Part shown: positions 21,270 to 39,162 of the stretch, in pieces
Layout: the number at the start of each line of letters is the position of its first letter
How positions within the stretch are numbered: position 1 is the first letter of the stretch
Assembly: GCA_002382735.1 (NCBI GenBank)
Contig: DFZN01000044.1
Span: 93 to 64,092, forward strand
Direction: 5' to 3'
Origin: a bacterium UBP11_UBA4055
Lineage (GTDB): Bacteria > UBA4055
DNA: 64,000 nt
Translations under genes and position numbers: made by a program
The notes under the pieces: model-generated
Databases searched by the model: none
Told to the model about the DNA's origin: nothing
What the model saw: the letters and a program-made list of their open reading frames with translations, nothing else

Positions 21270-21700
21270 TGAAAATGAACAACCCCGAGGCAAGCCTCGA
21301 GGAATCTAAAAGAGTGTCGGTTGGCCTTTGAACACCTGAGCATATTTCTTATTTTCACCCTGACTCTCAACATATTTTTTTATTACCTCTTCATTTGCGT
21401 ATTGACTAACCGTATTTGCATAGTAGCCGCTCGTCCAAAAATTTCCACCCCATAGCTTTGATTTTATCTCAGGGTGCTTTTCGAACAGTTCTCTTGCTGT
21501 GATACTTTTCAAGACTCTCGTTATTTCCGATACATTCATTGATGGTACACTCTGAACCAAAAAATGAACATGATCTTCTTCGTACCCTATTTCAATCACT
21601 CATTCCTGTAATATACGCTTTTTCAAAGCGCTATGAAAACCTCAGGTTTTCAATCTTTCCTCTTGACCCCGAGGCAAGCCTCGAGGTATTCTCTTCGAAT
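21270..21700 (-). mobile_element. IS200/IS605-family insertion sequence remnant (truncated tnpA flanked by two subterminal hairpins)
   Basis: Identical palindromic motifs CCCCGAGGCAAGCCTCGAGG at 21283-21302 and 21667-21686 (stem CGAGGC/GCCTCG). They bracket a tnpA that lacks its N-terminus. Element is only about 430 bp. Confidence 0.6.
21306..21599 (-). pseudogene. tnpA: IS200-type Y1 (HuH) transposase TnpA, N-terminally truncated
   Basis: EEDHVHFLVQSVPSMNVSEITRVLKSITARELFEKHPEIKSKLWGGNFWTSGYYANTVSQY...EVIKKYVESQ matches the IS200 TnpA HuH motif through the C-terminus. About 50 N-terminal aa are missing and the frame opens with GTG right after a TGA. Confidence 0.65.
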
Positions 21701-21809: not shown

Positions 21810-22556
21810 TTACACTCCACCGTCACGCTTCCTGATGTGTTCTTTTGTAACCTCGGGAATTGTAGAATTGAATAGTTCTTCTAACTCTCGCGGTTTAGTA
21901 ATCATTTCTTCAGCTATAAAATTCAAAATCTGGAATAATTTTAAAGCTATTTCCTTGTTGTCGTCCAGATTTATTTCACCAGGGTGTACCGCATTATTAC
22001 CAACAACACGAACCAAATCTAAAGCTTGCTGAATCTTTGGACTCAAACCCTCAGATACTAGCTCTTTAATATCTTGATTAATATTCTTTCCACACTTACC
22101 GAGTTGAATAAGAAGCTTCTGAAGTGCGAGTCGTAATAATGCAGCTGCGCCTTTTGGGGAATCCGTAACTATAGATGAAGCTTCATTATACAAAGTGATT
22201 ATATCTACACTAAGATCCGGATTCGGTGTCTGGGTTAATCGACTTTTTGGAAATACAAGCTGTTTATCAAACCAAAGTGATGGTTCACCACAATGAAAGC
22301 ATGTTGAGACTGCAATCTTTTGTGGTATATATCCTTGAAAGGTAGAAATGAATTGAGTGCCAACACTTTCCAAAAAATCATGTATTGGCCTTTGCTCATA
22401 ATCGGCAATACTCGATCTGTAGTCCATGTAAAAATGATTGATTATCCCGAGCGCAATACTTGCGCCTCCGTCATCATCAAACCAATCCTGCTGTGCAGTA
22501 ACACCACAATAAGGGCACTTTAGGCTTTTTGCCTTGAAATTCTTAGAATCCGCCAT
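21810..22556 (-). CDS. DUF4145 domain protein with N-terminal Cys-rich region
   Basis: C-terminal AAALLRLALQKLLIQLG...ALDLVRVVGNNAVHPGE is the DUF4145 signature (ends ...R.xGNxxAH). N-terminal CPYCG...CFHCG. Confidence 0.55.
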   Translation of the reverse strand: MADSKNFKAKSLKCPYCGVTAQQDWFDDDGGASIALGIINHFYMDYRSSIADYEQRPIHDFLESVGTQFISTFQGYIPQKIAVSTCFHCGEPSLWFDKQLVFPKSRLTQTPNPDLSVDIITLYNEASSIVTDSPKGAAALLRLALQKLLIQLGKCGKNINQDIKELVSEGLSPKIQQALDLVRVVGNNAVHPGEINLDDNKEIALKLFQILNFIAEEMITKPRELEELFNSTIPEVTKEHIRKRDGGV

Positions 22557-22746: not shown

Positions 22747-24225
22747 TTAGACAACCGCATCAGACGCTCGGGCATTAAACGCTAATTCAAGCTTTTCTTT
22801 AAGATAGGATTTTAAGCAAAATACTTCAATTTTATGAGCTTTTTTCGGATTGTCTAAGAAATAGTGCGTATAATCACCTTCTGAATCAGGCGAAATAATC
22901 TGCATTTTACGCTCTTCGTTGTTAATGTCTTTTAAAACATCATCGTGCTTAATGTCTGTATCCCAACATACAACACTATGCAGATTTTCAAAAGAATGAT
23001 TGAATCCTTTGCTCAGTGTCCTTTTAAATTCTACATAAAAAAGCTTGGCACTTGAGATCGGTGTGTTTTTATCTCCTTTTGCTATTACATCAATTCCGTC
23101 ATGCGTATCGTAATCAATGATATAAAATGGAAAAAGTGTTTCGTGAATTTGTGACAAAATCAAAAAAATTGAAAAGACGCCGCTTTCTCTTTCAGGCTCA
23201 ACTAGTGTAATTCCTTTATATTCTGCAATATTAGCCCTGTTGATTTTGTTTATTCGCCATTCAAAATTTTTCTTTTCCTTTTCTGTTGTTTGGTAAGCGT
23301 ATGCTTCATCTTCGAGCCATTCCATTGCTGTCCATTCATCACTTTTTACTATGTTGTCATAAATTTTTCTGACTTCATCTTTCAAGTCCTGAAGTATTTC
23401 TGAAGGTGTGTTATCAATTGAGCCTCTATTTGCTGTTAGGCGCAAATCTTGACAATTAACAAAAGCGTGAAATTTTGTGTATTCCGAACCTTTAAAGGTG
23501 ATCCACTCATTTTTCCGTTGAATTGGCATATAATCTTTACAGAGCCACAATCCATATCTTTCTTGTATTGTATAGGCCCCTTCAGGTGCGCAGTAACCCG
23601 GCCGTCTTATCATTGTATTATAGTCGTATTTTGCATATCTGCCTTCAAGTCCGAAAATAGCCTGAAATTTTATTTCAGGATAATTTTTTAATGTACCATT
23701 CTTTATGACTTTTTTTGAATAATAATCTGGTGCCTTGACTAAATAATCGTCAAGAAGTTTATTTATGTTTTTGCTGTCTTCAGGGAAGTAGTGGCCTTGT
23801 ATAATTTCCTCGTATTCATTCTGGTCAAGTCCTTGCAAATACAGTTTGGTTCTATTTCTGAATTCTGTAAATTGATTTTCAATGGATCCATGCTTTGTAA
23901 ACCAAATTATATAATCCTTTAAAATCGGATGAGTAAACTTATCACGGCGGTTATTATTGTATCCGAAAATCGTGATTTCTGTACCTTTATCAATGTTGGT
24001 TGCAGGCGTTACCTCAACCTTTGGTATTTCACGATTAAATAATTTTCTGAAAGGTTCTTCCACTATGGCAATTAAACCTTCAGTTCCCGTTGATGTTTTT
24101 ACTTCGATTTTTCTACTATTGAAATAAACTTTAGTGCCATGACCTTTCTCTCCGATGGCACTATCATCGCCTCTTCTAGTTGAATTTCCTAAATCAAAAA
24201 AACTCTGGAGTTGATCAGAATCCAT
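22747..24225 (-). CDS. GHKL (histidine-kinase/HSP90-like) ATPase-domain protein; N-terminal part probably continues to about 24421 through a frameshift
   Basis: DNGDGMD (G1 box) immediately precedes the annotated Met, GEKGHGTK (G2 box) follows. Upstream in the -1 frame LVREAISNAYDA is the N box, with MEPYTITPKVDETQEFIEIANDF in a third frame from ATG 24421. A TAG interrupts at about 24343. Confidence 0.55.
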   Translation of the reverse strand: MDSDQLQSFFDLGNSTRRGDDSAIGEKGHGTKVYFNSRKIEVKTSTGTEGLIAIVEEPFRKLFNREIPKVEVTPATNIDKGTEITIFGYNNNRRDKFTHPILKDYIIWFTKHGSIENQFTEFRNRTKLYLQGLDQNEYEEIIQGHYFPEDSKNINKLLDDYLVKAPDYYSKKVIKNGTLKNYPEIKFQAIFGLEGRYAKYDYNTMIRRPGYCAPEGAYTIQERYGLWLCKDYMPIQRKNEWITFKGSEYTKFHAFVNCQDLRLTANRGSIDNTPSEILQDLKDEVRKIYDNIVKSDEWTAMEWLEDEAYAYQTTEKEKKNFEWRINKINRANIAEYKGITLVEPERESGVFSIFLILSQIHETLFPFYIIDYDTHDGIDVIAKGDKNTPISSAKLFYVEFKRTLSKGFNHSFENLHSVVCWDTDIKHDDVLKDINNEERKMQIISPDSEGDYTHYFLDNPKKAHKIEVFCLKSYLKEKLELAFNARASDAVV

Positions 24226-24525
24226 ACCATCACCATTGTCCTTAAGAACAATTTTCAGAACTGATTCACCATAATGTTTAACAACTTCAAATGAAATATT
24301 AATCTCGCTACATTTTGCATCATAAGCATTACTTATAGCTTCCCTGACAAGGTCTAAAGATTTGAAAAGTCGTTTGCTATCTCAATAAATTCCTGAGTTT
24401 CATCTACCTTTGGTGTAATTGTGTATGGTTCCATTTCTTCCCCTACTGTTTATTTTTTTTCGATTTTCTCATTGGTTTGAATTTACTTGAAATCATCTCC
24501 CAAATCAAGAGTAATTTCGATGAAA

Positions 24526-25578
24526 TCACACATCAAAAGCAAGGCTTCTCCAAAATTCATTAAAGAAATCTTTACAAGTTACAGTTGGAAGACTAAGACT
24601 TACATAGCTATCATGAATATCGAAATATTCAGAAAGCTCATTTTTAATTACGCTTTGGTCTTGTAAAGAAATATTGTATGTCGTGCCATAGCATTCAGGA
24701 TTGATTCCACCACTCGTTGTAATATACGGTTTTATCAATTCCATGTTTATTTTATGATAAGCGAAGCCCAAGAAAACTAGTTTGTTGGCCAATCCGGTCT
24801 TTTCTCTGATTTCTTTTATATCGCTTGACTCAGGATCTACACCCTCGGTGAATGTTTTAATCCTTTTGGATAATTCTAAAAGTTTATCCGGTGCAGGATT
24901 TCCTCCGTAGCCAAGATTTTCTCCAGCTCTGTTTAGCAACAATCCTACATCTCCGTAAGGGTGATAAATTTCTAATTGTTCCAGAATTTCATAAGTCTCC
25001 AAAACATTCACATCGTAGTACTGCTGTAATGCGTAATAAAGAAATTGTTCAACGCATCTATCATAGTTGAAAATCACTAGGGTTACATTTTTAAATCTAT
25101 CTTTCAAATCTTCCTTAGTACAATTTTCGGTCAGTAGTTTAAAAAAAGGTAGATACCATGTATTTTTTAACTTTTTAAAATCAAGCCCATTCCCTCTTGA
25201 ATTGTAATTGGCAAGCAAGCTTTTACCTTCTGATTCTAAAATCGCCTTTACTATTGCCAGTTTACTGCATAATTCGATCTCCTCATTACCTCTTTGAGAA
25301 TCTATATAATTGTCAATTGATATAGCTAAAGTTAATGCTTTTGATATCCTTCTTGATTCTTTAAGGTAATTGTTGTAAGCAGAATTATCACGGCCAATAT
25401 TTTTAGTATGTATCTTCAATGCTTCTGAAATATTGAAATCACCACTTTCTAGTCTGAATCCTCCTTCATATCTTATATCAAGTAATCGAGAAATATTCTC
25501 TTTAAGCTCTTCACCTACAGGCATGTTTACTTCTTTACTTGCACCAGCCCCAATAACGAAAACTATTCTTTTAGTCAT
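24526..25578 (-). CDS. SIR2-family (defence-type NADase-like) protein
   Basis: VFVIGAGASKE Rossmann start, TLVIFNYDRCVEQ (conserved TTNYDxLxE motif of ThsA/DSR-type SIR2), IYHPYGD. 350 aa, no extra C-terminal domain recognisable. Confidence 0.65.
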   Translation of the reverse strand: MTKRIVFVIGAGASKEVNMPVGEELKENISRLLDIRYEGGFRLESGDFNISEALKIHTKNIGRDNSAYNNYLKESRRISKALTLAISIDNYIDSQRGNEEIELCSKLAIVKAILESEGKSLLANYNSRGNGLDFKKLKNTWYLPFFKLLTENCTKEDLKDRFKNVTLVIFNYDRCVEQFLYYALQQYYDVNVLETYEILEQLEIYHPYGDVGLLLNRAGENLGYGGNPAPDKLLELSKRIKTFTEGVDPESSDIKEIREKTGLANKLVFLGFAYHKINMELIKPYITTSGGINPECYGTTYNISLQDQSVIKNELSEYFDIHDSYVSLSLPTVTCKDFFNEFWRSLAFDV

Positions 25579-25582
25579 ACTT

Positions 25583-26530
25583 TTAGTTCTCCTCAGTTAG
25601 AGTAAGTATATCGTGATGTAATTTGGCCAAAGGTCGCATGTGAAAATGTTCAGGATCAAGAATGACTCCAAATATATCTTTTTTTAAATTCTCATCATTT
25701 ACACTCATTATACTTGCCATTTCTTCTATTCGGGTATCCGGATATTTATCTCTTAAATTACATAGTTTCTTTACATAATCATTGTGCGTAGCATATTGTT
25801 CATTTATTTTTAAAGCTTGAATTAAATCTGAATATTCTTCATGTTCTAGCCTTGGTTTGAAACTATCATGGTCTATAATCCAAAATTTAATCTTATGCAA
25901 TTTGAATGATTCATCATAAGGTGATTTACATTTCACTTCGCTTTGATTCTTTAACATTGTATTGCAGGTCATACATACAGGCACTAAATTATAAAATGAA
26001 TAAGTTATTATAGGTGATTTTGCTTTATAATAGAAATGATCCAAAGAGTAAGTTCTACTTCCATTTTCTAACTCATTAATAAAGTTGCGATTACAAAAAT
26101 AACAACTTTCTAATTCAATATGATCATCATACCAATTTTTAATTCTATTTGTGACTCCTCCACTCCATATAAATAATTTTTGATATATTTCAACAGCTTG
26201 CATATTTAAGTAAAGATCAGTAAAATTATCTGAATTAATATATTCATATAGCACATTTGGTTCAGCGCACAAAACTTTTTTGAATAAATTCCGATAATCA
26301 TCTTGGTTAACTAAATTATTATCTCTATCAAAAAAGTCTCTATGATTTTCTATGCTATTTTGGAATTCTGTATTTATAGAGGATATTTCATATGCAATCG
26401 CGTAGATTTTCCCTTTTCTTTTTATATCTCCAAAAACAAAATCCTCACTATTAAAATTGTAATTTAATATGTCATTGGCATAAGAATCAATACTAAAAAC
26501 AGATTCTTCCTTAAAGATTACTTTCAACAT
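25583..26530 (-). CDS. HNH nuclease-domain protein (PtuB-like)
   Basis: CYFCNRNF...LDHFYYKAK...NLVPVCMTCNTMLKNQ is the HNH bba-Me motif. Start overlaps the upstream ATPase gene stop region (26530/26533). Confidence 0.6.
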   Translation of the reverse strand: MLKVIFKEESVFSIDSYANDILNYNFNSEDFVFGDIKRKGKIYAIAYEISSINTEFQNSIENHRDFFDRDNNLVNQDDYRNLFKKVLCAEPNVLYEYINSDNFTDLYLNMQAVEIYQKLFIWSGGVTNRIKNWYDDHIELESCYFCNRNFINELENGSRTYSLDHFYYKAKSPIITYSFYNLVPVCMTCNTMLKNQSEVKCKSPYDESFKLHKIKFWIIDHDSFKPRLEHEEYSDLIQALKINEQYATHNDYVKKLCNLRDKYPDTRIEEMASIMSVNDENLKKDIFGVILDPEHFHMRPLAKLHHDILTLTEEN

Positions 26531-26532
26531 AA

Positions 26533-28434
26533 TTAACTCTTTAACTTTTTATTTATGAATTCAATAGACTTTTCAATTTGGTCTTTTAAATATTTTTCAC
26601 CAATATTTTTACTTATAAGTGAGAAATAGTTAATAAAAGTTATTCCTTTTTTATATTCACCGTAAAATTTTTGCCTTAACTCTTCTATTATTTGTGCATC
26701 ATTTTTAGATAAGTCTACTTCTTTTAAAAAATCAAAAAATTCCTTTAATTGCACACGAGCATATTCTCCGATATAGCTATTAAGAAAAAAACCATTTTTA
26801 TAAAGATCAAAAATATTAGCAGCAAAATAATTTTCAGTTGGATTAATCTGAATAGGCATTTCTTTATCATCCTTTGATAAAAGTATTATATTACTTGAAG
26901 GCATATCAGATGCTATAAATGGAGAGTGTGATGTGAGGATTAAATGTAAATTGCAGTTTTTAAAAAATATTTCAGTATTAAATACATTTGTAATCGTATT
27001 TAAAAATTTCCTTTGCCATTCAGGATGTAAAAGGTAATCGGGTTCATCCATTAAAATATGTATTTCTTTACCTTTGATTGATTTTCTCTTTTCTTCGTTA
27101 TCTAATAAAGTATAAAACATCGAGAAGAAAGTTAACATTGCTTTTTCTCCTGAAGAAAGACCTTTCCAATCAATTAACATGAATCCCGAATCAGGTAGCA
27201 ATCTAATTCCTTCAACTATCGTATTTAATACCTTCTTTTCTTCTTTTAATCTTATAGTAAAATTATTATAAGATTGTATCTTCGGATTATTGGTTTTTAT
27301 TATATCAATAAGTAATTGATAGTATGAACTGTAAAACTTATAACCGTTCGTAAGAATTAGCTTTGATTTAGGATTTTTCTTTATGCGAGAGTTTTCATCA
27401 AGATATAATTTGAAAAATGACATAATTCTTTCTTTTAAACTACGACCATATATTTTGTTACATTCAACCATATCATCGTCATGGTTTGTTCCATCTTTTA
27501 TAAAAACATGATAAAATAACATGCTAAAAAATTGAGTAAGAATTGCATCTTCATAATCATCTTTATAGTCATTTTTTAATGGTGTTATGACTTTATGATA
27601 AATTTCCAAATAATCCTTGCCTCTATGAACTTTTTCAGATTCCAAACGCACTGTCTCGGAATAATCAACATTTATACCGATTTTAATATATTCAGGTATT
27701 TTAAGATCTTCAATCTCTAAACCTAACTTTTCCTTCTCATATATAAAATTAAGACATTTAAGTACTAAGTATTGTTCTAAACTTTGAGTTAAGTTTTCAT
27801 TAGGTTTCAACAACAACCAATCTTTAAAATCTCTACTATTTATAATAGCGTCAATAGAAATGTTATTTTTATACGCACTTTCGTAACCATTAAAATCACT
27901 ACGATTAAGAAATATGTTACTATAAAAAATCATATTATCTTGTGATAGTGCTTGATATTTCATACCGGGTAGTGCTTGCTCAATATTATTGTATAAGTAT
28001 AAATCATCTGTTAAGGTAAGGCTATATTTCTTTAATGATTGTATCTTAGCTAACTCTTTAGACTTTTTACATATATAAAAAGCTTTATTAGACCATAAAT
28101 AAAATTCTTCATTTTCTTTATAAACTAGTATTGCTTTATCTTCAACTGGAAAAGTCCATTTTTCTTCCAATCTGTACAATCCAGAAATTATTGTAGATTT
28201 ACCAACGCCATTTTTTCCAATAATTGCTGTTATATTTTTAACTGCATTTCCTTGTGAATTTGTAAAAAATTCAGGAATGTAATTTTCATTCTTACTGCAT
28301 ATTAGAATATCTTTCCCATCTTTATTTATTACACTAAAAATAAACTCACTTCCAAAATTAAAACATGCAATCTTGTCAGAGTTTTGCAAACATCCAAAAG
28401 CAGGATGATCTTTTGTCCACAAAAATACAATCAT
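26533..28434 (-). CDS. ABC/SMC-type (AAA_15/AAA_21-like) ATPase (PtuA-like)
   Basis: Walker A GKNGVGKST near residue 75, signature-like LSSGEKA, Walker B HILMDEPDYLLH, H-loop LILTSHSPFI near the C-terminus. 633 aa. Extremely AT-rich coding sequence. Confidence 0.65.
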   Translation of the reverse strand: MIVFLWTKDHPAFGCLQNSDKIACFNFGSEFIFSVINKDGKDILICSKNENYIPEFFTNSQGNAVKNITAIIGKNGVGKSTIISGLYRLEEKWTFPVEDKAILVYKENEEFYLWSNKAFYICKKSKELAKIQSLKKYSLTLTDDLYLYNNIEQALPGMKYQALSQDNMIFYSNIFLNRSDFNGYESAYKNNISIDAIINSRDFKDWLLLKPNENLTQSLEQYLVLKCLNFIYEKEKLGLEIEDLKIPEYIKIGINVDYSETVRLESEKVHRGKDYLEIYHKVITPLKNDYKDDYEDAILTQFFSMLFYHVFIKDGTNHDDDMVECNKIYGRSLKERIMSFFKLYLDENSRIKKNPKSKLILTNGYKFYSSYYQLLIDIIKTNNPKIQSYNNFTIRLKEEKKVLNTIVEGIRLLPDSGFMLIDWKGLSSGEKAMLTFFSMFYTLLDNEEKRKSIKGKEIHILMDEPDYLLHPEWQRKFLNTITNVFNTEIFFKNCNLHLILTSHSPFIASDMPSSNIILLSKDDKEMPIQINPTENYFAANIFDLYKNGFFLNSYIGEYARVQLKEFFDFLKEVDLSKNDAQIIEELRQKFYGEYKKGITFINYFSLISKNIGEKYLKDQIEKSIEFINKKLKS

Positions 28435-28455
28435 TTATCACACCTTTTAACAAAT

Positions 28456-29229
28456 TCAATGATCTTTTATCACTTCAGTAATCTCATCTGCAATTTCTTT
28501 AATTGTAAACGTAGCTGTATTTCTGGCTAGTTTATCTGCTAAAGAGGGACTATAATCTATTACTTCCTGTTTTGTGATTTTATGCCATATTGGCAATAGA
28601 ATCTGTTCCCCACTAACAGCTTTAGTTATTATTCCATCCAATTCGTAATTCGTCCACCCTTTATTAATGAAATTTTTAGAGAGAACAACTATTCCGAATC
28701 TACTATTTGCTAACCCTTTATCTATTTTTCTTCTCAAACTATCACCGATTTTTAGCTCAAATTCATCATACCATACTTTTAAATTATTTAATTGAAGCTG
28801 GTTCGCTAAAGGTCTTACAATATCATCTTTATCTTCTGAAGCATGAGAAATAAAGACATCGTACTTTCTTATTATATTGTCATCATTTTGATTAGGTGGA
28901 ACTTCTCTGTCTCGTACTAATGAAGGAACACTTGATAAAGGCGCTTCTTTTGCACTAGGTAACAAACCAGGTAAAACTCTTAAATTGTATTTTATTTGCC
29001 CGCTATGTCCACCTAAATCTAAAACAACATACCATCTACCACTTCTAGGCACATTGAGTTTAAATGGTGAGCTTGTTACATATCCTCCGTAATAATTATG
29101 TCTTTTCCCACTTTTATAATTTGAAAAATTCGAACTATCTACTAATCTTACATTTGCTGCACTTCCTAGAGTAACCTCTACGATTTCTCCTCCATTTAAT
29201 TGCCCTAAATCACTATATAAAAACTGCAT
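28456..29229 (-). CDS. DUF1883-TIR domain protein
   Basis: N-terminal MQFLYSDLGQLNGGEIVEVTLGSAANVRLVDSSNFSNYKSGKRHNYYGGY...PRSGRWYVVLDLGG is the DUF1883 signature. C-terminal DVFISHASEDKDDIVRPLANQL...WYDEFELKIGDSLRRKIDKGLANSRFGIVVLSKNFINKGWTNYELDGI is a TIR domain. Confidence 0.7.
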   Translation of the reverse strand: MQFLYSDLGQLNGGEIVEVTLGSAANVRLVDSSNFSNYKSGKRHNYYGGYVTSSPFKLNVPRSGRWYVVLDLGGHSGQIKYNLRVLPGLLPSAKEAPLSSVPSLVRDREVPPNQNDDNIIRKYDVFISHASEDKDDIVRPLANQLQLNNLKVWYDEFELKIGDSLRRKIDKGLANSRFGIVVLSKNFINKGWTNYELDGIITKAVSGEQILLPIWHKITKQEVIDYSPSLADKLARNTATFTIKEIADEITEVIKDH

Positions 29230-29240
29230 TTTTCACCTCC

Positions 29241-29340
29241 ATTTACACAAACATTCCTTGCAGCAATCCCTTCTTAAATTCTTTTAGCAAAGCGAACGAA
29301 CTTATGGATTGCATGCTCAATTCTTGCCCTTCAATCAATC
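29241..29340 (-). repeat. Orphan fragment homologous to the 3' end of hsdS (copy of about 30247-30340)
   Basis: acaaacattccttgcagcaatcccttcttaaattcttttagc versus acaaacataccttgcaacaatcctttcttaaattcttttagc in hsdS, encoding its C-terminal ...LKEFKKGLLQGMFV. Lies between the FGE-sulfatase gene and the TIR gene. Confidence 0.55.
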
Positions 29341-29385
29341 AGACTTCTTTTTCTTCTAGAAAAAAAACAAAGGGTAACGCTTGCG

Positions 29386-30198
29386 CTATTTAGTCCTTGC
29401 AACACGAAAGCCGAAGGAGTTGAACCTGAGGCCGGGGACGTCGTCGTAGCTGTAGGCGACGAAGCAGTAGTAGTTTAAGGTGTACCACGACCCACCCCGA
29501 AGAACACGGTTTATGCCTTCTGTGTGCCAGTCCCAGCACCATTCCCATACATTCCCGCTCATGTCATGAATTCCAAGTTCGTTCGGCTGCTTAGTACCTA
29601 CAAGATGGGTCTTTGAACCAGAATTAGCCTTGTACCAAGCTACATCGCCAACATTGTCACTGCCGCTGTATTTATAATCTCTGCTCCGATTACCGCCTCT
29701 CGCCGCATATTCCCATTCATCTTCGATCGGCAAACGATAACCGTTCGCTTTAAAATTGCATAGAATATTGTCTCCGCTACCGCTATAACATTTCTGCAAT
29801 CCTTCCATTTCGCTAAGTTTATTACAGAACTCAACCACATCATACCAGCTTACTTGCTCTACAGGAAGATTATCGCCTTTAAAATAGCACGGATTATCAC
29901 CCATGACTGTTTTCCACTGCGCCTGAGTTACCTGATATTTTCCAATGTAAAAATCAGATATAGTTACTTTATTACGAACCTGAAATGCCCCGCCTTCAAC
30001 AAGAACTATTTCTATTCCTTCAGACGATAAAATACTCGTCGGATTTGGTTTGTAATTTTCTCTTGCCTTCAATAGCTCTTCGTTGAATTTTTCCTGACTA
30101 AGTATTCCGGATTCGTAAAGTGGTATCAAGTCTTCAACATCCGAATAGTATGGTAAAGATTTTATAGCATTTAATTGTTCTTCTGTTAGTTTAGGCAT
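29386..30198 (-). CDS. Formylglycine-generating-enzyme (FGE-sulfatase/SUMF1) domain protein
   Basis: C-terminal RVLRGGSWYTLNYYCFVAYSYDDVPGLRFNSFGFRVAR and WEWCWDW are the FGE-sulfatase family signature. About 60-aa unrelated N-terminal segment. Confidence 0.7.
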   Translation of the reverse strand: MPKLTEEQLNAIKSLPYYSDVEDLIPLYESGILSQEKFNEELLKARENYKPNPTSILSSEGIEIVLVEGGAFQVRNKVTISDFYIGKYQVTQAQWKTVMGDNPCYFKGDNLPVEQVSWYDVVEFCNKLSEMEGLQKCYSGSGDNILCNFKANGYRLPIEDEWEYAARGGNRSRDYKYSGSDNVGDVAWYKANSGSKTHLVGTKQPNELGIHDMSGNVWEWCWDWHTEGINRVLRGGSWYTLNYYCFVAYSYDDVPGLRFNSFGFRVARTK

Positions 30199-30246
30199 AT
30201 ATAATCATCCTCCTACTAATTATTCTTCCCTTCTTTATTTCACCTT

Positions 30247-31533
30247 TTAAACAAACATACCTTGCAACAATCCTTTCTTAAATTCTTTTAGCCTAGCTAA
30301 TTCTTTGTTGATATGCTCAATTCTCGTATCTAAATCAATTAGAAAATCAGCTATCTTTTTTTGTTCTTCTAATACAGGTAGCATAATTTCAAGTTCAGAA
30401 ATGGCTTTCTTAGAAATTCCAAAAACAGAGATGCCTTGTGCTAATTTCATAATTTGGTCTTTTACATATGGAGAACTTAAGTAGTGTCCATTGTAACCTA
30501 AAGCCATTTTAGCCTTGAATCTAACATGAATAGTATGCAGTCCGGCTAGTATTTTCTCTTTGCTCATGTTTGTTATTTCTATGCACTTCCCTATATCCTT
30601 CGTATCCTCAGAAGCATCGGCAAATATAATGTCACCATTTTGACAGAAATTAATATTGTTATATTTTTCTATGTTTACATCTTCGTTTATATATGGGATT
30701 AAGGCTGATTTGACATTCAAAATTGAAGGATATCGCATGTGTATATCACCGTAATGTATATTTTGTACCTGTCCAGCCTTATAATTCATACATTCTCTTG
30801 AAAATGAATTTGTTTGTATGAATTCCGCCACATCCCCAAGCCTCTTTTCTTCCCAGTCAGGGTAATTTTTCCCTTTTTCATCTTTGAAGCGGATTTTCTG
30901 CGAGAAGATTTTTTGCATTGCTCCTTTTTTGTACTGTTCGGTGAGTTGTTTTTTGCGGGCGAGTTTTTCGATTTTCGTGTCTATGTCGGAAAGGAATTCT
31001 GCGATCTTGTTTTGCTCTGGCAAAGAAGGAATATAGAAGGAAAAATTACCCATCTGTTGCAAATTCAAATTAGGTTGTGCGCCTACACTAATGCTTTCTA
31101 AAATATATTTTCTCATAACTTCAGATTGCAAAATATGTAAAATGTAATTCAATGAAGAGTAATCTTTGAGTCTTATTATTGATAATGCCTGATTTGTGTT
31201 AGCTGGTAAATTTTCTTTCTTTACAACAGCAACTTTACCGATTGTAGCACCAGCTATAGCAAATAAAATATCATTTTCTTTTAAAACAGACCTGTTTAAA
31301 GCACCAAAATGCACATCGTTATCTATATATAAACATTTTTCATTTACAATATTAGCACCATCTAAGCTCTCAATTTTAATGAATTTTACACCTTCTTTAC
31401 TAAAATAATTTGGAGTAGTGCCTTTTGTAATCAATGCTGAATAATCTTTTAGTCTCTTCTCCTTCCACTCTCCTGTGAAGCCGGGGAAGCGGAGTTTTGG
31501 TTGTTTTGTGTTTTTATCTGAATGGCTTTTCAT
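30247..31533 (-). CDS. hsdS: Type I restriction-modification specificity subunit HsdS (two TRDs)
   Basis: Central and C-terminal conserved coiled regions (LPSLPEQNKIAEFLSDIDTKIEKLARKK... and LPVLEEQKKIADFLIDLDTRIEHINKELARLKEFKKGLLQGMFV), each preceded by a variable target-recognition domain. Confidence 0.85.
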   Translation of the reverse strand: MKSHSDKNTKQPKLRFPGFTGEWKEKRLKDYSALITKGTTPNYFSKEGVKFIKIESLDGANIVNEKCLYIDNDVHFGALNRSVLKENDILFAIAGATIGKVAVVKKENLPANTNQALSIIRLKDYSSLNYILHILQSEVMRKYILESISVGAQPNLNLQQMGNFSFYIPSLPEQNKIAEFLSDIDTKIEKLARKKQLTEQYKKGAMQKIFSQKIRFKDEKGKNYPDWEEKRLGDVAEFIQTNSFSRECMNYKAGQVQNIHYGDIHMRYPSILNVKSALIPYINEDVNIEKYNNINFCQNGDIIFADASEDTKDIGKCIEITNMSKEKILAGLHTIHVRFKAKMALGYNGHYLSSPYVKDQIMKLAQGISVFGISKKAISELEIMLPVLEEQKKIADFLIDLDTRIEHINKELARLKEFKKGLLQGMFV

Positions 31534-31544
31534 TATTCCTGTTC

Positions 31545-32396
31545 TTATTTTATTTTTATTGTAAATATTTCGTTGAACAATTTTGTTTTTCTGACCTGAT
31601 CGGTCTCGGTGTGTTCCTCTTTATTATTGATGACCTCGTATTCGACCGCGCCTATGTATGTCAGGTATGTTCTGAATACTCTGTTACGGTAAGCCCACCA
31701 GTGAGACATTGTCTTATATTTTGGATCGGGATCGAAATCGAACGCGTCCATTGAGGCGGGGAAAGCTTTAAAGAACTTGTTGTAGTAATCTCTTGATTCC
31801 CTGTATTCGTTCCCGTACTTTTCGAGAAGGTATAAAGTGTAGCCGACGGACCTTTGGATGAAACCGTCGTCCTGTCTGACGGATTCAAATCCCCAGTTGA
31901 ATTTGGATATGAGAGCGACCATTAACCCTGCATATAATTCGCGATCGTCTGTGAGAGCCTCTTCGCCTGCTTTTGTTATAGTTATAACATTGTTCCTCAA
32001 TTTTGTATAACCGCATAACTTGGCCAGAAGGCGGGCTACAAATATGATAATGACATCTTTTTCGCCTGAAAGCTTTACTATTCCCCTTTCAACCGCGTCA
32101 TCTTTGAGTTCTGTATTTTCATAAAGTTCCCTGACATACTTTGGAGGCATGTATTCGGCCTGTGTGAGCTTTATCTCTTTTTCTCTTTCCAATATCTGCA
32201 TAAAGTGTTTGACGAGCTTAAAGATCGGAATCTGATTAATTGCTTCTGTCGAGATATCTTTATTAAGCTGAACTATTGCTCCATCGGTAAAGGAGAAATA
32301 CAGAATGTTGTGCATTTCATCCGGCGAAAGGCCGTCGAAGTCGTCTATTCCTCTGCTGTTCTGTTTGTTCAAGTATTTCTGAAAATCTGATTTCAT
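31545..32396 (-). CDS. Hypothetical protein (283 aa) embedded in the Type I R-M operon
   Basis: Intact ORF between DUF1016 and hsdS, 11 bp from the hsdS start. No motif recognised. Confidence 0.4.
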   Translation of the reverse strand: MKSDFQKYLNKQNSRGIDDFDGLSPDEMHNILYFSFTDGAIVQLNKDISTEAINQIPIFKLVKHFMQILEREKEIKLTQAEYMPPKYVRELYENTELKDDAVERGIVKLSGEKDVIIIFVARLLAKLCGYTKLRNNVITITKAGEEALTDDRELYAGLMVALISKFNWGFESVRQDDGFIQRSVGYTLYLLEKYGNEYRESRDYYNKFFKAFPASMDAFDFDPDPKYKTMSHWWAYRNRVFRTYLTYIGAVEYEVINNKEEHTETDQVRKTKLFNEIFTIKIK

Positions 32397-32436
32397 ACTA
32401 ATTGCCCTTTTGATTTTCTTTCTTCATTTCTACCTT

Positions 32437-32488
32437 TTTTACAGCCTTGATTACGCACAATTGTGCAAGTGAGACTTGCACAATTAAG
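32437..32488 (+). repeat. ~50-bp palindrome-containing element, copy 2
   Basis: TTTTACAGCCTTGATTACGCACAATTGTGCAAGTGAGACTTGCACAATTAAG. Overlaps the stop codon of DUF1016 gene 1. Confidence 0.7.
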
Positions 32489-33578
32489 AGCGGTCATTAT
32501 CACTGCCGTAAACTGCCTCTATCTCCCTTACCATGAGTTGTTTCAGCTCCTTTTTCTCGGGCAGACTGTTTTTTATGAGTTCTTCTATTTCATAGGCGGC
32601 AACTCCGAGCGGAATTTTCATTCCTCTCATAGCATATTCCACCTTGATGTTGCTTTTTGACGCACAGAGCAGAAGGCCGATCGTAGGTTTATCATTTCCG
32701 CTTTTTAATATGTCGTCAACCGCGCTTATATAGAAATTCAGCTTGGATATATATTCCGGCATGAATTCCCCTGCTTTAAGTTCAATAACAATGTAGCAGT
32801 GCAGGATCGTGTGGTAAAAAAGCAGATCTATTTTATATTCAGTTCCGTCAACTTCTAATCCGTACTGTCTGCCGACAAAAGCAAAACCCTTACCAAGTTC
32901 GATAAGAAAATCTGACAATTTCTCTGTCAGTTTCTGTTCGATCTCATATTCCTTGACTTTCCTCGTAAGATTCAGGAATCCGAACTTATACGGGTCCTTA
33001 AATATGCTCTGCGCGAGATCCGACTGATAGTCCGGAAGTGATTCCGAAAAATTATTGATAGCCTTTCCGCTTCTCCTATACAGACCGGAAGCAATCTGCA
33101 TAAGCATAACTTCTGTATTCCATCCGTTATTCGAAGATTCTGTTATATAAAATGCCCTTTCCTTAATGTTTTTTACTTTCCCGATTAGAGAGATATGCTG
33201 AAACCATGTAATTTTATCAAGAGGTATTTTAGTATAGTCTCCTTTCTTTCTTGAAAGCGGTATATTAAGGAATGGATAATCAGGATATGCCTCCGCGAAT
33301 GTTCTCATATAATTCAAATTTCTTACAGAGTAGCCGGTCGAATCGGGAAAATCCTTTTTTATGTCTTGTGCAAGATTGGATATAACATGCCCTCCCCAAC
33401 CCAGTCTTTTCTGAACATCGAGAACGGAAAAACCTATTTCCCAGTAAAGCTGAAGCATCTCGCTGTTTACCTTTAAAGCCGTCCTTAATTGAGCTCTTTT
33501 TATCTTGCCTGATATATCCTTTGACCATTTTATATAATCGGACTTGGGAATATTATTGACGATTACTCCGCCTTTCAT
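32484..33578 (-). CDS. DUF1016 (YhcG-like, PD-(D/E)xK nuclease superfamily) protein, copy 1
   Basis: Family-typical layout: N-terminal helical domain, C-terminal GKGFAFVGRQYGLEVDGTEYKIDLLFYHTILHCYIVIELKAGEFMPEY (D...ELK core). Located between hsdM and hsdS, as DUF1016 genes frequently are. Confidence 0.7.
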   Translation of the reverse strand: MKGGVIVNNIPKSDYIKWSKDISGKIKRAQLRTALKVNSEMLQLYWEIGFSVLDVQKRLGWGGHVISNLAQDIKKDFPDSTGYSVRNLNYMRTFAEAYPDYPFLNIPLSRKKGDYTKIPLDKITWFQHISLIGKVKNIKERAFYITESSNNGWNTEVMLMQIASGLYRRSGKAINNFSESLPDYQSDLAQSIFKDPYKFGFLNLTRKVKEYEIEQKLTEKLSDFLIELGKGFAFVGRQYGLEVDGTEYKIDLLFYHTILHCYIVIELKAGEFMPEYISKLNFYISAVDDILKSGNDKPTIGLLLCASKSNIKVEYAMRGMKIPLGVAAYEIEELIKNSLPEKKELKQLMVREIEAVYGSDNDRS

Positions 33579-33603
33579 GCTGATACTCCTGCATTTTTAA
33601 ACT

Positions 33604-33653
33604 TTTTACAGCCTTGATTACGCATAATTGTGCAAGTGTGACTTGCACAATTA
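33604..33653 (+). repeat. ~50-bp palindrome-containing element, copy 3
   Basis: TTTTACAGCCTTGATTACGCAtAATTGTGCAAGTGtGACTTGCACAATTAG between hsdM stop and DUF1016 start. Confidence 0.7.
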
Positions 33654-33692
33654 GGGAAATATAGGCACAGTTCATGCCTGACATAATATAGC

Positions 33693-35243
33693 TTATTCAT
33701 CATTACCTCCGAATACGGGCGGGGTGATTCCGAGTTCTTTGCACTGCGCGATGATCTTTTTGTCTGTGAGTTTTATGTCAGCTTCGATGTTTTTGAGTTC
33801 CTGCGCGATCTTATCGAGGTCAATTTCGTCTTCCTCTTCGAATGTATCGACATATCTTGGAATGTTGAGGTTGTAGTCGTTCTGCCTGATCTGTTCTATT
33901 GAGGCTGAGTGCGAGTATTTTTCTTCCTCTTTTCTGTTCCTGTATGTGCTTATGATCTTTTCGACATCTTCATCGCGTAGATTGCTCTGATTTTTGGCTT
34001 TTTCGTAAGACCGGCTTGCGTCTATGAAGTGTATGCTGTCGGATTCTGTTCTGCATTTTTTGAATACGAGGATGACTGTGGGTATTGATGTTCCGTAAAA
34101 GATGTTCGCGGGCAGTCCGATGACGGCATCGAGCCAGTTCTTTTCCTCAATGATGTATTTTCTGATCTCGCCTTCCGCTGCTCCTCTGAATAGTACTCCG
34201 TGCGGTAAGACTATTGCCATTGTTCCGTTCTCGTCAAGCTGATAGAGCATGTGCTGAACGAATGCGAAGTCCGCCTTTGTTTTCGGCGCGAGTTTTCCGT
34301 ACGGGCTGAATCTTTCGTCCGATAAGAAGGTCTGGTTTGCCGCCCAGTGCGCGGAGAATGGCGGATTGGCTACTACTGCCTCAAAGCGTTTGTCCAGGTC
34401 GTGCGGTTCTTCGAGAGTGTCTCCCTGCGTTATGTGAAAATCGTTGTATTTGACCGAATGGAGTATCATATTCATTCTCGCCAGGTTGAAAGTGGTGGTG
34501 TTTAATTCCTGCCCGTAGAAGTCCGATACTTTACATTCCTTCGATACCCTGAGTAAGAGCGATCCCGAGCCGCAGGTTGGGTCATATACCGATCTGAGTC
34601 TTTCTTTGCCTGTCGTGACGATCTTTGCCAGTATTTTTGATACCTGCTGGGGCGTATAGAACTCACCCGCTTTCTTTCCCGCTCCGCTCGCGAACTGTGA
34701 GATTAAATATTCATAAGCGTCGCCGAGTACATCCGCCTCTGTGTCCTCAAGCCTGAAATCAACTTCCGCTATGTGCTTGATAACTTCCGAAATGAGCTTG
34801 TTCTTCAGCTCGACCGTTCTTCCGAGCTTTGTCGAAGTAAGATCAACATCCTCAAAAAGTCCCGCGAAATCCTCCTCGCTCTTATGGCCGATGGTTGCTT
34901 CCTCCACCGATTTTAATGCCTTGCCGAGATCTTCAATTACAAACTCCCTGTTCCTTGCCCTTTCCGCTATCCTGCTGAATAAGTTTGCTGGTAAAATAAA
35001 AAAGCCCATATCTTCGATACATTCCTCTTTTAAGTCATGCGAAAGCTCTTTATCCTTCATAGCCTCTTCAAAGCTCAATTTGTCCGATTTTAGCTCATCT
35101 GAAACGAATTTCTCGATCTTTTCCGATAAGAATTTATAAAAAATAAAGCCGAGGATATAGTCCCTGAATTCATCCGCACCCATATTTCCGCGTAAAGTGT
35201 TCGCTATGTCCCATAATTTCTGTTCGAGCTTCTGCTTTGTCAT
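33693..35243 (-). CDS. hsdM: Type I restriction-modification DNA methyltransferase subunit HsdM (N6-adenine)
   Basis: N-terminal HsdM_N-like region, SAM-binding DPTCGSGSLL, catalytic motif IV VVANPPFS. Confidence 0.9.
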   Translation of the reverse strand: MTKQKLEQKLWDIANTLRGNMGADEFRDYILGFIFYKFLSEKIEKFVSDELKSDKLSFEEAMKDKELSHDLKEECIEDMGFFILPANLFSRIAERARNREFVIEDLGKALKSVEEATIGHKSEEDFAGLFEDVDLTSTKLGRTVELKNKLISEVIKHIAEVDFRLEDTEADVLGDAYEYLISQFASGAGKKAGEFYTPQQVSKILAKIVTTGKERLRSVYDPTCGSGSLLLRVSKECKVSDFYGQELNTTTFNLARMNMILHSVKYNDFHITQGDTLEEPHDLDKRFEAVVANPPFSAHWAANQTFLSDERFSPYGKLAPKTKADFAFVQHMLYQLDENGTMAIVLPHGVLFRGAAEGEIRKYIIEEKNWLDAVIGLPANIFYGTSIPTVILVFKKCRTESDSIHFIDASRSYEKAKNQSNLRDEDVEKIISTYRNRKEEEKYSHSASIEQIRQNDYNLNIPRYVDTFEEEDEIDLDKIAQELKNIEADIKLTDKKIIAQCKELGITPPVFGGNDE

Positions 35244-35250
35244 TTATTGC

Positions 35251-38082: not shown

Positions 38083-39162
38083 TTATTTATCTCCGTATAA
38101 TGCCATTTCTTCTTTGACCATGAGTTTTTCAAGCTGTTCTTCGGTAGGCAGGTAAAGTTTGTACTTTGAGGCAAAGAGCTTCTTTCCGTCCGCAAGGACT
38201 GAGTATTTTGCTATTGTTTCGTTTTTCTCGCTGCAGAGTATCAGACCTATTGTCGGATTGTCGTCCTCTGATCTGAATTTTTCTTCAAAGATCCTGACAT
38301 AAGAGTCCATTTGTCCGACATCCTGATGCGTAAGCTTTCCTCTTTTCAGGTCTATGAGCACAAAACATTTGAGTTTGTAATTGTAGAATACAAGGTCTAT
38401 ATAAAAATGCTCACCGTCCATATCAATATGTTTCTGCCTGGCAACGAAAGAAAATCCGCTTCCGAGTTCAAGCAGGAATTGGGCAAGATTGTCGAGTAAA
38501 GCTGTTTCAAGCTCGGTTTCGGTAAATTCTTTTCTATTTTTCAGTCCGGCGAATTCAAGTACATACGGGTCTTTGAGAATATCATCGGATTCGAGATTTC
38601 TTGTATTCTCTTTAGCTTCTTCTATTACCGGTTTTTTGTTACGGCCGGAAAGCAATCGTTCGTAATAAAAGCTGTTGATCTGTCTTTCGAGAGCTCTGGT
38701 TGACCAATTCTCGCTTATTGCTTCCTTCATGTACCATTGGCGGGCTTTTTCGTCCTCTACTTTGAGCAAATGACGGTAATGAGTCCAGCTTAATTCTGTA
38801 CTGACCGAGTTCGGCAATGGAGATTTGGAACTCACTGCGTTCCGAATTGGAAAGAATATAAAAAACTGCCTCATATACCGCAAATTTCTCTCGTCATATC
38901 CCTCGCCGAATTCCGCGGTAAGTTTCTCAGAAAGATGTCTGAGTGTTTCTTTTCCATACTCAGCTCTTTTTTCTCCTTTGAGCTCATCTTCGACAATAAT
39001 TTTGCCTATGTTCCAGTAAGTAATGACCATTGTGGTGTTGACAGCGGTTCTTACCTGCTTTCTCGATTCAGCTATCAGTTCTGCAATCTGCTTATATATA
39101 TCGTTTTTTGTAAACTTATTCATCATTTCCTCCGAATACGGGGTGATTCCGACTGAATGCAC
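38083..39162 (-). CDS. DUF1016 (YhcG-like) protein, copy 2; true start probably Met-Met at about 39125
   Basis: Paralogue of 32484..33578 (GSGFSFVARQKHIDMDGEHFYIDLVFYNYKLKCFVLIDLKRGKLTHQD). The first ~13 annotated codons (HSVGITPYSEE) derive from a remnant of an hsdM 3' end (compare 33699-33740 with 39115-39152). Confidence 0.65.
   Translation of the reverse strand: MHSVGITPYSEEMMNKFTKNDIYKQIAELIAESRKQVRTAVNTTMVITYWNIGKIIVEDELKGEKRAEYGKETLRHLSEKLTAEFGEGYDERNLRYMRQFFIFFPIRNAVSSKSPLPNSVSTELSWTHYRHLLKVEDEKARQWYMKEAISENWSTRALERQINSFYYERLLSGRNKKPVIEEAKENTRNLESDDILKDPYVLEFAGLKNRKEFTETELETALLDNLAQFLLELGSGFSFVARQKHIDMDGEHFYIDLVFYNYKLKCFVLIDLKRGKLTHQDVGQMDSYVRIFEEKFRSEDDNPTIGLILCSEKNETIAKYSVLADGKKLFASKYKLYLPTEEQLEKLMVKEEMALYGDK

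Follow-up and report, generated by a model that had tools for sequence, protein, structure and literature searches.

The question raised by the stretch of DNA analyzed here, 64,000 nucleotides of contig DFZN01000044.1 from the bacterium UBP11_UBA4055 (referred to as the window), is whether four genes packed on its minus strand at 24526-29229 constitute one defence system. The genes encode a DUF1883-TIR protein, an ABC-type ATPase, an HNH nuclease and a SIR2 protein, and the initial annotation described them as a Septu-like core bracketed by Thoeris-like genes, possibly forming a hybrid or nested system. According to the analysis presented here, the four genes are with good probability three autonomous modules placed head to tail, i.e., the TIR gene, the ATPase/HNH pair and the SIR2 gene, and not a Septu-in-Thoeris hybrid.

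The four minus-strand open reading frames (ORFs) found in the window agree exactly in their coordinates with those of the initial annotation, and all four of its domain assignments hold. Gene 1 (28456-29229) encodes the DUF1883-TIR protein of 257 amino acids (aa), gene 2 (26533-28434) a PtuA-like ABC-type ATPase of 633 aa, gene 3 (25583-26530) a PtuB-like HNH nuclease of 315 aa and gene 4 (24526-25578) a single-domain SIR2-fold protein of 350 aa. The genes are tightly spaced as reported, but the gaps read from the sequence are 21, 2 and 4 nt instead of 22, -1 and 5 bp. Scanning of the coding strand revealed no terminator-like sites or hairpins in these gaps, which is in line with the previously proposed single transcript, so that co-transcription of the four genes is plausible and probable. 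A sigma-70 promoter scan resulted in 48 sites compared to 47.6 expected from shuffled sequences, the consensus being unsuited to a Bacteroidota-like genome. A TAnnTTTG box, found 98 nt ahead of the coding start of the SIR2 gene, was not relied on, as its occurrence by chance is expected at about 8%.

The main evidence for separate modules is the distribution of the four gene families. In total, 148 loci were fetched and scanned with profile hidden Markov models (HMMs) of all four families, and 144 of these loci lie outside this organism. The 80 SIR2-anchored loci, one per species, contained neither an HNH gene nor a TIR gene of this family, and for the ATPase a single weak match was obtained at a distance of 5 kb; the window proteins used as tblastn queries gave the same outcome for these loci. 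No HNH, ATPase or SIR2-family gene was detected in the 14 TIR-anchored loci, which represent about five distinct contexts, among them an integrative element, a chromosomal site between TPR/Abi_C genes, an Escherichia coli IncF plasmid and a viral contig. Around the ATPase (50 anchored loci), an HNH gene was present in 29 loci, a TIR gene of this family in one and a gene of the SIR2 family in none. Scans of viral contigs contributed one TIR locus and 13 distant ATPases.

All four genes together were found only in the loci L095-L098, which consist of 99.98-100% identical DNA; they all represent the same organism, re-assembled from metagenomes of the tailings-pond type. The four proteins are singletons at 90% identity. 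A conserved four-gene block, as considered in the initial annotation, was thus found in 0 of the 144 sampled loci outside this organism. The annotation itself had named the lack of such co-occurrence, together with separate promoters and terminators, as what would speak against a block, and since the four genes are never together outside this organism, the hypothesis of a conserved block fails by its own measure on the genomic side. The TIR gene family and the SIR2 gene family each occur overwhelmingly alone. In a clustering of every ORF located up to 5 kb from a SIR2 gene, no neighbour family was present in more than five of the 80 loci, and among 143 immediate neighbours, many of them housekeeping genes, no Pfam family appeared more than twice. 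The gaps between the SIR2 genes and their neighbours are typically 100-700 nt, with mixed orientations. Although co-transcription is likely, a functional coupling of the four genes is unsupported.

Considered by itself, the ATPase/HNH pair is a predicted Septu-type module that is extremely divergent. The ATPase matches the Pfam families AAA_21 (6.4e-13) and AAA_15 (6.7e-10) and carries Walker A (GKNGVGKST, residues 73-81), the LSSGE signature (426-430), Walker B (ILMDEPD with D463/E464) and the H-loop. Walker A, LSSGE, Walker B and the downstream HPEWQ/H-loop residues are invariant among 21 ATPase relatives. For the HNH protein, no Pfam match was obtained; the alignment with 17 relatives revealed an invariant textbook HNH motif (C143-x2-C146, D164-H165, N181, C186-x2-C189-N190). 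Compared with the PDB, the profile of the ATPase family matches PtuA of retron Ec78/I-A (1e-19), Septu PtuA (1e-15), AriA (6e-15) and then OLD, while the sole match of the HNH-family profile is a TIGR02646 (PtuB-type) protein (chain 9n69_F). The closest solved relatives are therefore PtuA and a PtuB-type HNH protein, as expected for the PtuA/PtuB architecture recognized in the initial annotation. An OLD/Gabija-type ATPase, which that annotation had listed as the finding that would contradict PtuA, is not encoded here, because a Toprim domain is absent. OLD and PARIS AriA both score below PtuA, and the partner of the ATPase is an HNH protein and not a Toprim protein.

The pairing of the two genes recurs in other organisms. 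In the 29 of 50 loci mentioned above, the HNH homologue is located directly downstream of the ATPase homologue, mostly overlapping it, and very divergent pairs are included. The gene order, the overlapping or near-abutting genes, an ATPase with Walker A, signature, Walker B, H-loop and a long insert, and the CxxC...DH...N...CxxC arrangement of the HNH protein are all shared with Septu and PtuAB. The HNH protein of the window has a long N-terminal region and, at about 315 aa, is larger than the PtuB-type PDB chain that it matches (227 aa). Using PADLOC, the ATPase was matched over its full length by PDC-M62A (1.9e-68; residues 3-577 on model positions 4-570 of 633) and the HNH protein by PDC-M62B (2.1e-30; residues 125-310 on positions 107-321 of 328), so that the models A and B of the two-gene PDC-M62 match adjacent genes separated by 2 nt. 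The PADLOC PtuA models reach about 1e-20 on the ATPase, covering only about 170 C-terminal residues (approximately 421-592), and PtuB matches the HNH protein partially (6e-5). Both genes remain below the curated Septu cut-offs (51.7 versus 500 bits for NCBIfam PtuA NF041760, 14.5 versus 52 for TIGR02646). An exhaustive HMMER search of 1.84 billion representative proteins found the nearest non-self ATPase relative at 30% identity. In a published survey, most PDC-M62 calls coincide with Septu calls (PMC11811056), and PtuAB of Septu and of retron-Eco7 is an ATPase-nuclease complex cleaving tRNA-Tyr (PMC12673091, PMC13096335).

In one of the re-assemblies (L095:8394-10297; JGI 3300000032), the ATPase is broken into ORFs of 331 and 222 aa by two indels, which probably result from sequencing errors, as the DNA is identical in the remainder of the 9.6 kb. 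The database cluster is represented by the 331-aa fragment, and the word-indexed search for ATPase homologues missed the self match.

The TIR gene belongs to a common architecture. Pfam matches were obtained for DUF1883 (E 9e-29) and TIR_2 (8.4e-21), the N-terminal DUF1883 domain being Atu1913-like (match to PDB 2b1y, Atu1913) and the TIR domain, at residues 121-255 approximately, being of the AbTIR type. With the NADase AbTIR (PDB 8g83/7uwg), the TIR domain shares 61% identity over 135 aa (E 1.5e-54); PdTIR and TcpB/BtpA are further close relatives of this domain. E196 within the conserved WTNYELDG is the putative catalytic glutamate. The PADLOC models PDC-S66 (3.7e-74) and ThsB (PDLC00417, 4.5e-47) match the TIR half only; the DUF1883 half does not match positions 1-137, the N-terminal half, of PDC-S66. 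The Pfam family ThsB_TIR stays under its cut-off (17.8 versus 21.2 bits). More than 8000 homologues of the DUF1883-TIR protein were found at 67-78% identity, and homologues are present on 148 plasmids, including E. coli IncF plasmids, where the partner genes of the block are absent; metagenomic relatives are located in unrelated gene contexts. DUF1883-TIR is known as a common bacterial architecture (PMC9153377), for which the literature search found no experimental defence data, and NAD+ hydrolase/cyclase activity is described for AbTIR (10.1101/2022.05.07.491051, PMC10641520).

The homologue on the E. coli IncF plasmid NZ_CP141738.1 (L128, 79943-81493) has 65% identity to the window protein and is found on many enterobacterial conjugative plasmids. 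It is oriented divergently to an adjoining ThsB_TIR-type gene and is located inside a Tn3-like ISEc63 element. A 637-aa gene beside another close TIR homologue (L083) was considered as a counterpart of the ATPase and turned out to be unrelated.

The SIR2 protein could be assigned by its predicted structure. Sequence comparison with Pfam, NCBIfam and PDB gave no match, the PDB profile searches resulted in chance matches only, and with a limit as loose as E <= 5 the window protein is still matched by neither SIR2 nor SIR2_2 of Pfam; among 34 relatives, SIR2_2 recognizes 10 (best E 3e-4). The initial annotation had called SIR2 on motifs, and of the separate checks of this call the fold comparison alone was informative. 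The structure model shows one SIR2 domain, into which helices are inserted, and its top matches are SIR2 of SIR2-HerA, KomC, ThsA and DSR2, which are defence SIR2 proteins; the SIR2 fold of gene 4 is thereby confirmed. ThsA aligns over the SIR2 domain only. Neither the model nor the fold comparison revealed a SLOG, Macro or other sensor domain, in agreement with the SLOG-less SIR2 protein described before, for which a cryptic ligand-binding domain had been considered. The motifs GAGAS (10-14), SID (87-89), FNYDRC.E (170-177), HPYG (206-209) and GFAxH (271-275) are invariant in the family, including the NYD motif noticed previously, and we take them to correspond to the known catalytic residues of sirtuins; N171 and H206 are likely the catalytic pair.

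A word-indexed search yielded 2379 matches to this family of about 350-aa proteins, for which a Pfam annotation and a PADLOC model are absent. Identities of 46-57% extend across Proteobacteria, Nitrospirota, Planctomycetota, bacteria of the candidate phyla radiation and one thaumarchaeon, and the distribution is patchy, as only 204 confirmed relatives were obtained when 185,579 species genomes were scanned. Among the defence SIR2 proteins, the family is distinct and highly conserved, with invariant motifs of its own. In contrast to SIR2-HerA, DSR1 and DSR2, the window protein has neither a HerA partner nor a large C-terminal sensor domain. The closest organisational analogue is lactococcal AbiH, a single-gene abortive-infection protein that is sirtuin-like according to HHpred and AlphaFold (PMC13064643) and resembles the SIR2 protein in size (about 350 aa), stand-alone gene and sirtuin-like fold. 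Unlike AbiH, none of 34 family members is matched by Pfam AbiH (PF14253), and the window protein compared with an AbiH-family protein by BLASTP gives E 0.47. The family may reasonably be considered a candidate for a defence that depletes NAD+ and consists of a single gene.

The AbiH-family protein used for this comparison is encoded in a Bacteroidales metagenome-assembled genome (L133:2101-7963), where the AbiH (sirtuin-like) gene lies two genes upstream of a PtuAB-like pair. Beside them, a 492-aa gene has the same length as a 492-aa ORF of the window, yet the two are unrelated.

A comparison with Thoeris gives a divided result. Gene 1 is a TIR-domain protein like ThsB, while the SIR2 protein is neither a SIR2-SLOG effector (type I) nor a transmembrane or Macro effector (type II) as expected for ThsA, and the ThsA models of PADLOC do not match it. 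Furthermore, the TIR and SIR2 genes are 2.9 kb apart with the ATPase and HNH genes between them, and co-inheritance is absent, the TIR family being found in 0 of 80 SIR2 loci and the SIR2 family in 0 of 14 TIR loci; any TIR neighbour is present in 2 of 80 SIR2-family loci. The proposed Septu-inside-Thoeris arrangement, hybrid or nested, is therefore unsupported, as the families do not co-occur and the SIR2 protein lacks SLOG and a ThsA model match.

The ATPase/HNH pair had been described as far more AT-rich than its surroundings, and this is reflected in a total G + C content of 0.26-0.27 compared to 0.33 for the TIR and SIR2 genes. It does not hold for third codon positions (GC3), at which the TIR and ATPase genes both have a value of 0.19 and are equalled by the HNH gene with 0.21, compared to 0.27 for the SIR2 gene and 0.42-0.58 for core genes. 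Since the whole island is AT-rich in comparison to core genes, the pair is only partly singled out by this property. Strong Shine-Dalgarno-like sequences were observed upstream of the TIR gene (GGAGGTG, 29230-29250), the ATPase gene (AAGGTG, 28435-28455) and the SIR2 gene (GAGGAG, 25579-25600). The genome otherwise looks Bacteroidota-like, with a type IX secretion system (T9SS) sorting domain at 40581-42236. Shine-Dalgarno-like sequences in such a genome, together with a GC3 of about 0.2, hint at a foreign donor.

Several observations weigh against three independent modules. The single strand, the gaps of 21, 2 and 4 nt and the lack of terminator-like sites have the look of one operon, and the TIR, ATPase and HNH genes may have been acquired jointly, given their near-identical GC3 of 0.19-0.21. 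A TIR-domain gene adjoins a PtuAB-like pair in 2 of 50 loci, directly in L112 (314-5044), where a SEFIR/TIR gene of another family is located 47 nt upstream of the pair, and at 1.9 kb in L115 (3699-9987), where a TIR gene and an AAA_15 gene lie upstream. A ThsB-type TIR gene (ThsB_TIR/TIR_2) is the immediate neighbour of the SIR2-family gene in 2 of 80 loci (L040:11082-11540 and L062:1226-2248), one being convergent and one located 97 nt upstream on the same strand. This adjacency may result from the island setting or reflect a Thoeris-like pairing that lacks SLOG and arises occasionally, and an occasional functional pairing is conceivable because of these two loci. Furthermore, the samples are limited to 80, 14 and 50 loci, and the divergent ATPase has no close relatives to be compared.

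On these grounds, the TIR gene and the PtuAB-like pair could form a three-gene, TIR-equipped Septu variant with the SIR2 gene as a separate neighbour, the TIR protein being the sensor or a second effector of the ATPase-nuclease complex, akin to the co-option seen in retron Ec78/Eco7. The 21-nt gap, the matching GC3 of the three genes, the two loci with a TIR gene upstream of the pair and the published precedent of PtuAB co-opted by an added sensor module (PMC12819146, PMC12673091) are consistent with such a trio. It is nevertheless judged unlikely, as the TIR gene is absent from 48 of 50 ATPase loci, the TIR architectures in L112 and L115 differ, their pairs are not the closest relatives of the window pair, and DUF1883-TIR, with its more than 8000 homologues and 148 plasmids, accompanies a PtuAB pair in 0 of 14 sampled loci. 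A Thoeris-like pair split by a Septu insertion would have the TIR protein activate the SIR2 NADase by a signal of the cyclic ADP-ribose (cADPR) type, as in ThsB/ThsA; the two proteins represent both Thoeris enzyme classes, the TIR domain matches the PADLOC ThsB model, two SIR2 loci have a ThsB_TIR neighbour, and AbTIR-type domains produce 2'cADPR (10.1101/2022.05.07.491051). This appears highly improbable, since the SIR2 protein lacks a ligand-sensor domain and a ThsA match, 78 of 80 SIR2 loci are without a TIR neighbour and none has this TIR family, the SIR2 gene is missing from all 14 DUF1883-TIR loci, and in the window the two genes are not adjacent and differ in GC3 (0.27 versus 0.19).

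The possibility that some or all of the genes have no defence function, the SIR2 protein serving, for example, as a deacylase or ADP-ribosyltransferase in housekeeping and the AbTIR-like protein in host interaction, with an incidental presence here, draws on the many housekeeping genes among immediate SIR2 neighbours (AdoHcyase, GlnE, RNR), on PADLOC matches among these neighbours that are scattered only, and on the literature searched, in which an experimental anti-phage role was found for neither the TIR nor the SIR2 family. The original description of TcpB/BtpA-type TIR proteins as virulence factors also counts in its favour. It is considered very unlikely in view of the patchy distribution of the SIR2 family (204 relatives in 185,579 species genomes), the closest folds being those of defence SIR2 proteins, and the neighbourhood: in the window, the genes are found among a type I restriction-modification (R-M) operon, two PDC-S02 genes, PD-T7-4 and the Septu-like pair, and elsewhere the neighbours include a retron reverse transcriptase, type IV DinG, PDC-S05/S15 and two TIR genes. 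Finally, the four genes, or the TIR gene with the PtuAB-like pair, might act as one integrated system, in which the AbTIR-type enzyme would sense infection and activate the ATPase-nuclease and the SLOG-less SIR2 protein via a cADPR-type product or by contact; such integration is regarded as quite unlikely. A less far-reaching proposal would be that the SIR2 family of about 350 aa is a new and widespread single-gene NAD+-depleting defence.

The three modules are embedded in a co-directional array of 17 kb with the order YhcG/PDC-S02, hsdR, hsdM, YhcG/PDC-S02, a gene with no assigned function, hsdS, an FGE-sulfatase-like gene, TIR, ATPase, HNH, SIR2, a frameshifted GHKL ATPase and PD-T7-4. The type I R-M operon (30247-38076, minus strand, identified by Pfam and PADLOC) is co-directional with the block and comprises hsdR (35251-38076), hsdM (33693-35243), a YhcG/DUF1016 (PDC-S02) nuclease gene (32484-33578), the 283-aa gene with no assigned function and an intact hsdS (30247-31533), all on the minus strand. 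It is preceded by a second YhcG gene (PDC-S02, 38083-39162) and followed by the FGE-sulfatase-like gene (29386-30198). Direct repeats of 65 nt with 89% identity (32422-32486 and 33589-33653) flank the YhcG/DUF1016 gene, which is inserted between hsdM and the remaining R-M genes, and each of them holds a 28-nt palindrome (AATTGTGCAAGTGAGACTTGCACAATTA).

Between the FGE-sulfatase-like gene and the block, a 105-nt remnant of an hsdS 3' end was identified on the minus strand (29239-29343; direct repeats D2/D3), which encodes a terminal ...KEFKKGLLQGMFV followed by a stop codon and is separated by only about 10 nt from the start codon of the downstream TIR gene. The hsdS 3' end is thus present twice (29239-29343 and 30243-30343), with 77-86% identity and at a distance of approximately 1000 nt, bracketing the FGE-sulfatase-like gene. 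This duplication suggests a cassette exchange or an insertion via recombination at conserved hsdS ends, and the remnant, as read from the sequence, marks the block as located at a putative hsdS-3' insertion point. PtuAB-like pairs were also found directly downstream of hsdS in three unrelated metagenomic loci (L099, L111 and L122). Because of the remnant in the window and these three pairs, the hsdS 3' end seems to be a site at which cargo of this type docks repeatedly. The position of the window pair behind hsdS is also a likeness to TIGR04435 ("restriction system-associated AAA ATPase").

Downstream of the SIR2 gene, the frameshifted GHKL ATPase gene (22747-24433, minus strand; HATPase_c_3 2.2e-11 for the reconstructed protein) and the PD-T7-4 (DUF4145) gene (21810-22556, minus strand; PADLOC 9.9e-75) are further island cargo and not partners of the four genes; no GHKL homologue was found near any of the 80 SIR2-family loci. 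The GHKL frameshift is located at a short T run about 26 codons into the gene, with the start codon on one side and the N-box (EAISNAYDA) and DNGDGM on the other. Since it is common to all four independent assemblies, the gene is either a genuine pseudogene or contains a slippery site. Furthermore, near-identical hairpin-forming repeats of 24 nt (ACCCCGAGGCAAGCCTCGAGG) at 21282-21305 and 21666-21689 flank a 97-aa ORF (21306-21599), for which the matching contig L095 carries the annotation Y1_Tnp (IS200-like transposase). The region 21282-21689 is probably a small IS200/IS605-type element at the island edge.

The gene structures, domains, folds and conserved catalytic motifs, the ATPase-HNH pairing and the missing four-gene co-occurrence are established by the data; for the preferred reading as three autonomous modules, we infer the following activities, triggers and anti-phage roles. 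The modules are arrayed in a larger co-directional AT-rich defence island, which is attached to the type I R-M operon at its 3' end. They are probably co-transcribed, possibly by read-through from this operon, and would not need each other; PADLOC likewise treats the pair as the two-gene PDC-M62 and matches the TIR domain to the single-gene candidate PDC-S66. The first module, with a TIR domain of the AbTIR/TcpB/PdTIR type, would hydrolyse or cyclise NAD+ and thereby consume it, possibly with cADPR isomers as products, and it might be triggered via its DUF1883 domain or its oligomeric state. In the second module, the PtuA-like ATPase would assemble with the PtuB-like HNH nuclease to an ATP-gated nuclease complex that, by analogy to Septu and retron-Eco7 PtuAB, may cut tRNA-Tyr or DNA on infection. 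The SIR2 protein as the third module would be an NAD+-depleting abortive-infection effector analogous to AbiH.

Tight packing and a shared strand are thus insufficient to declare a new multi-gene defence system, as the family of each module leads its own separate genomic life. If it were true, an integrated system would represent a new wiring of TIR signalling to Septu and SIR2 effectors. The modules themselves are divergent further members of already known kinds: the Septu-type ATPase/HNH pair is very divergent and recurs right behind hsdS of type I R-M systems, and DUF1883-TIR with an AbTIR-like domain is also spread on enterobacterial conjugative plasmids. The most interesting by-product is the widespread, highly conserved stand-alone SIR2-fold family without annotation, which is cheap to test.

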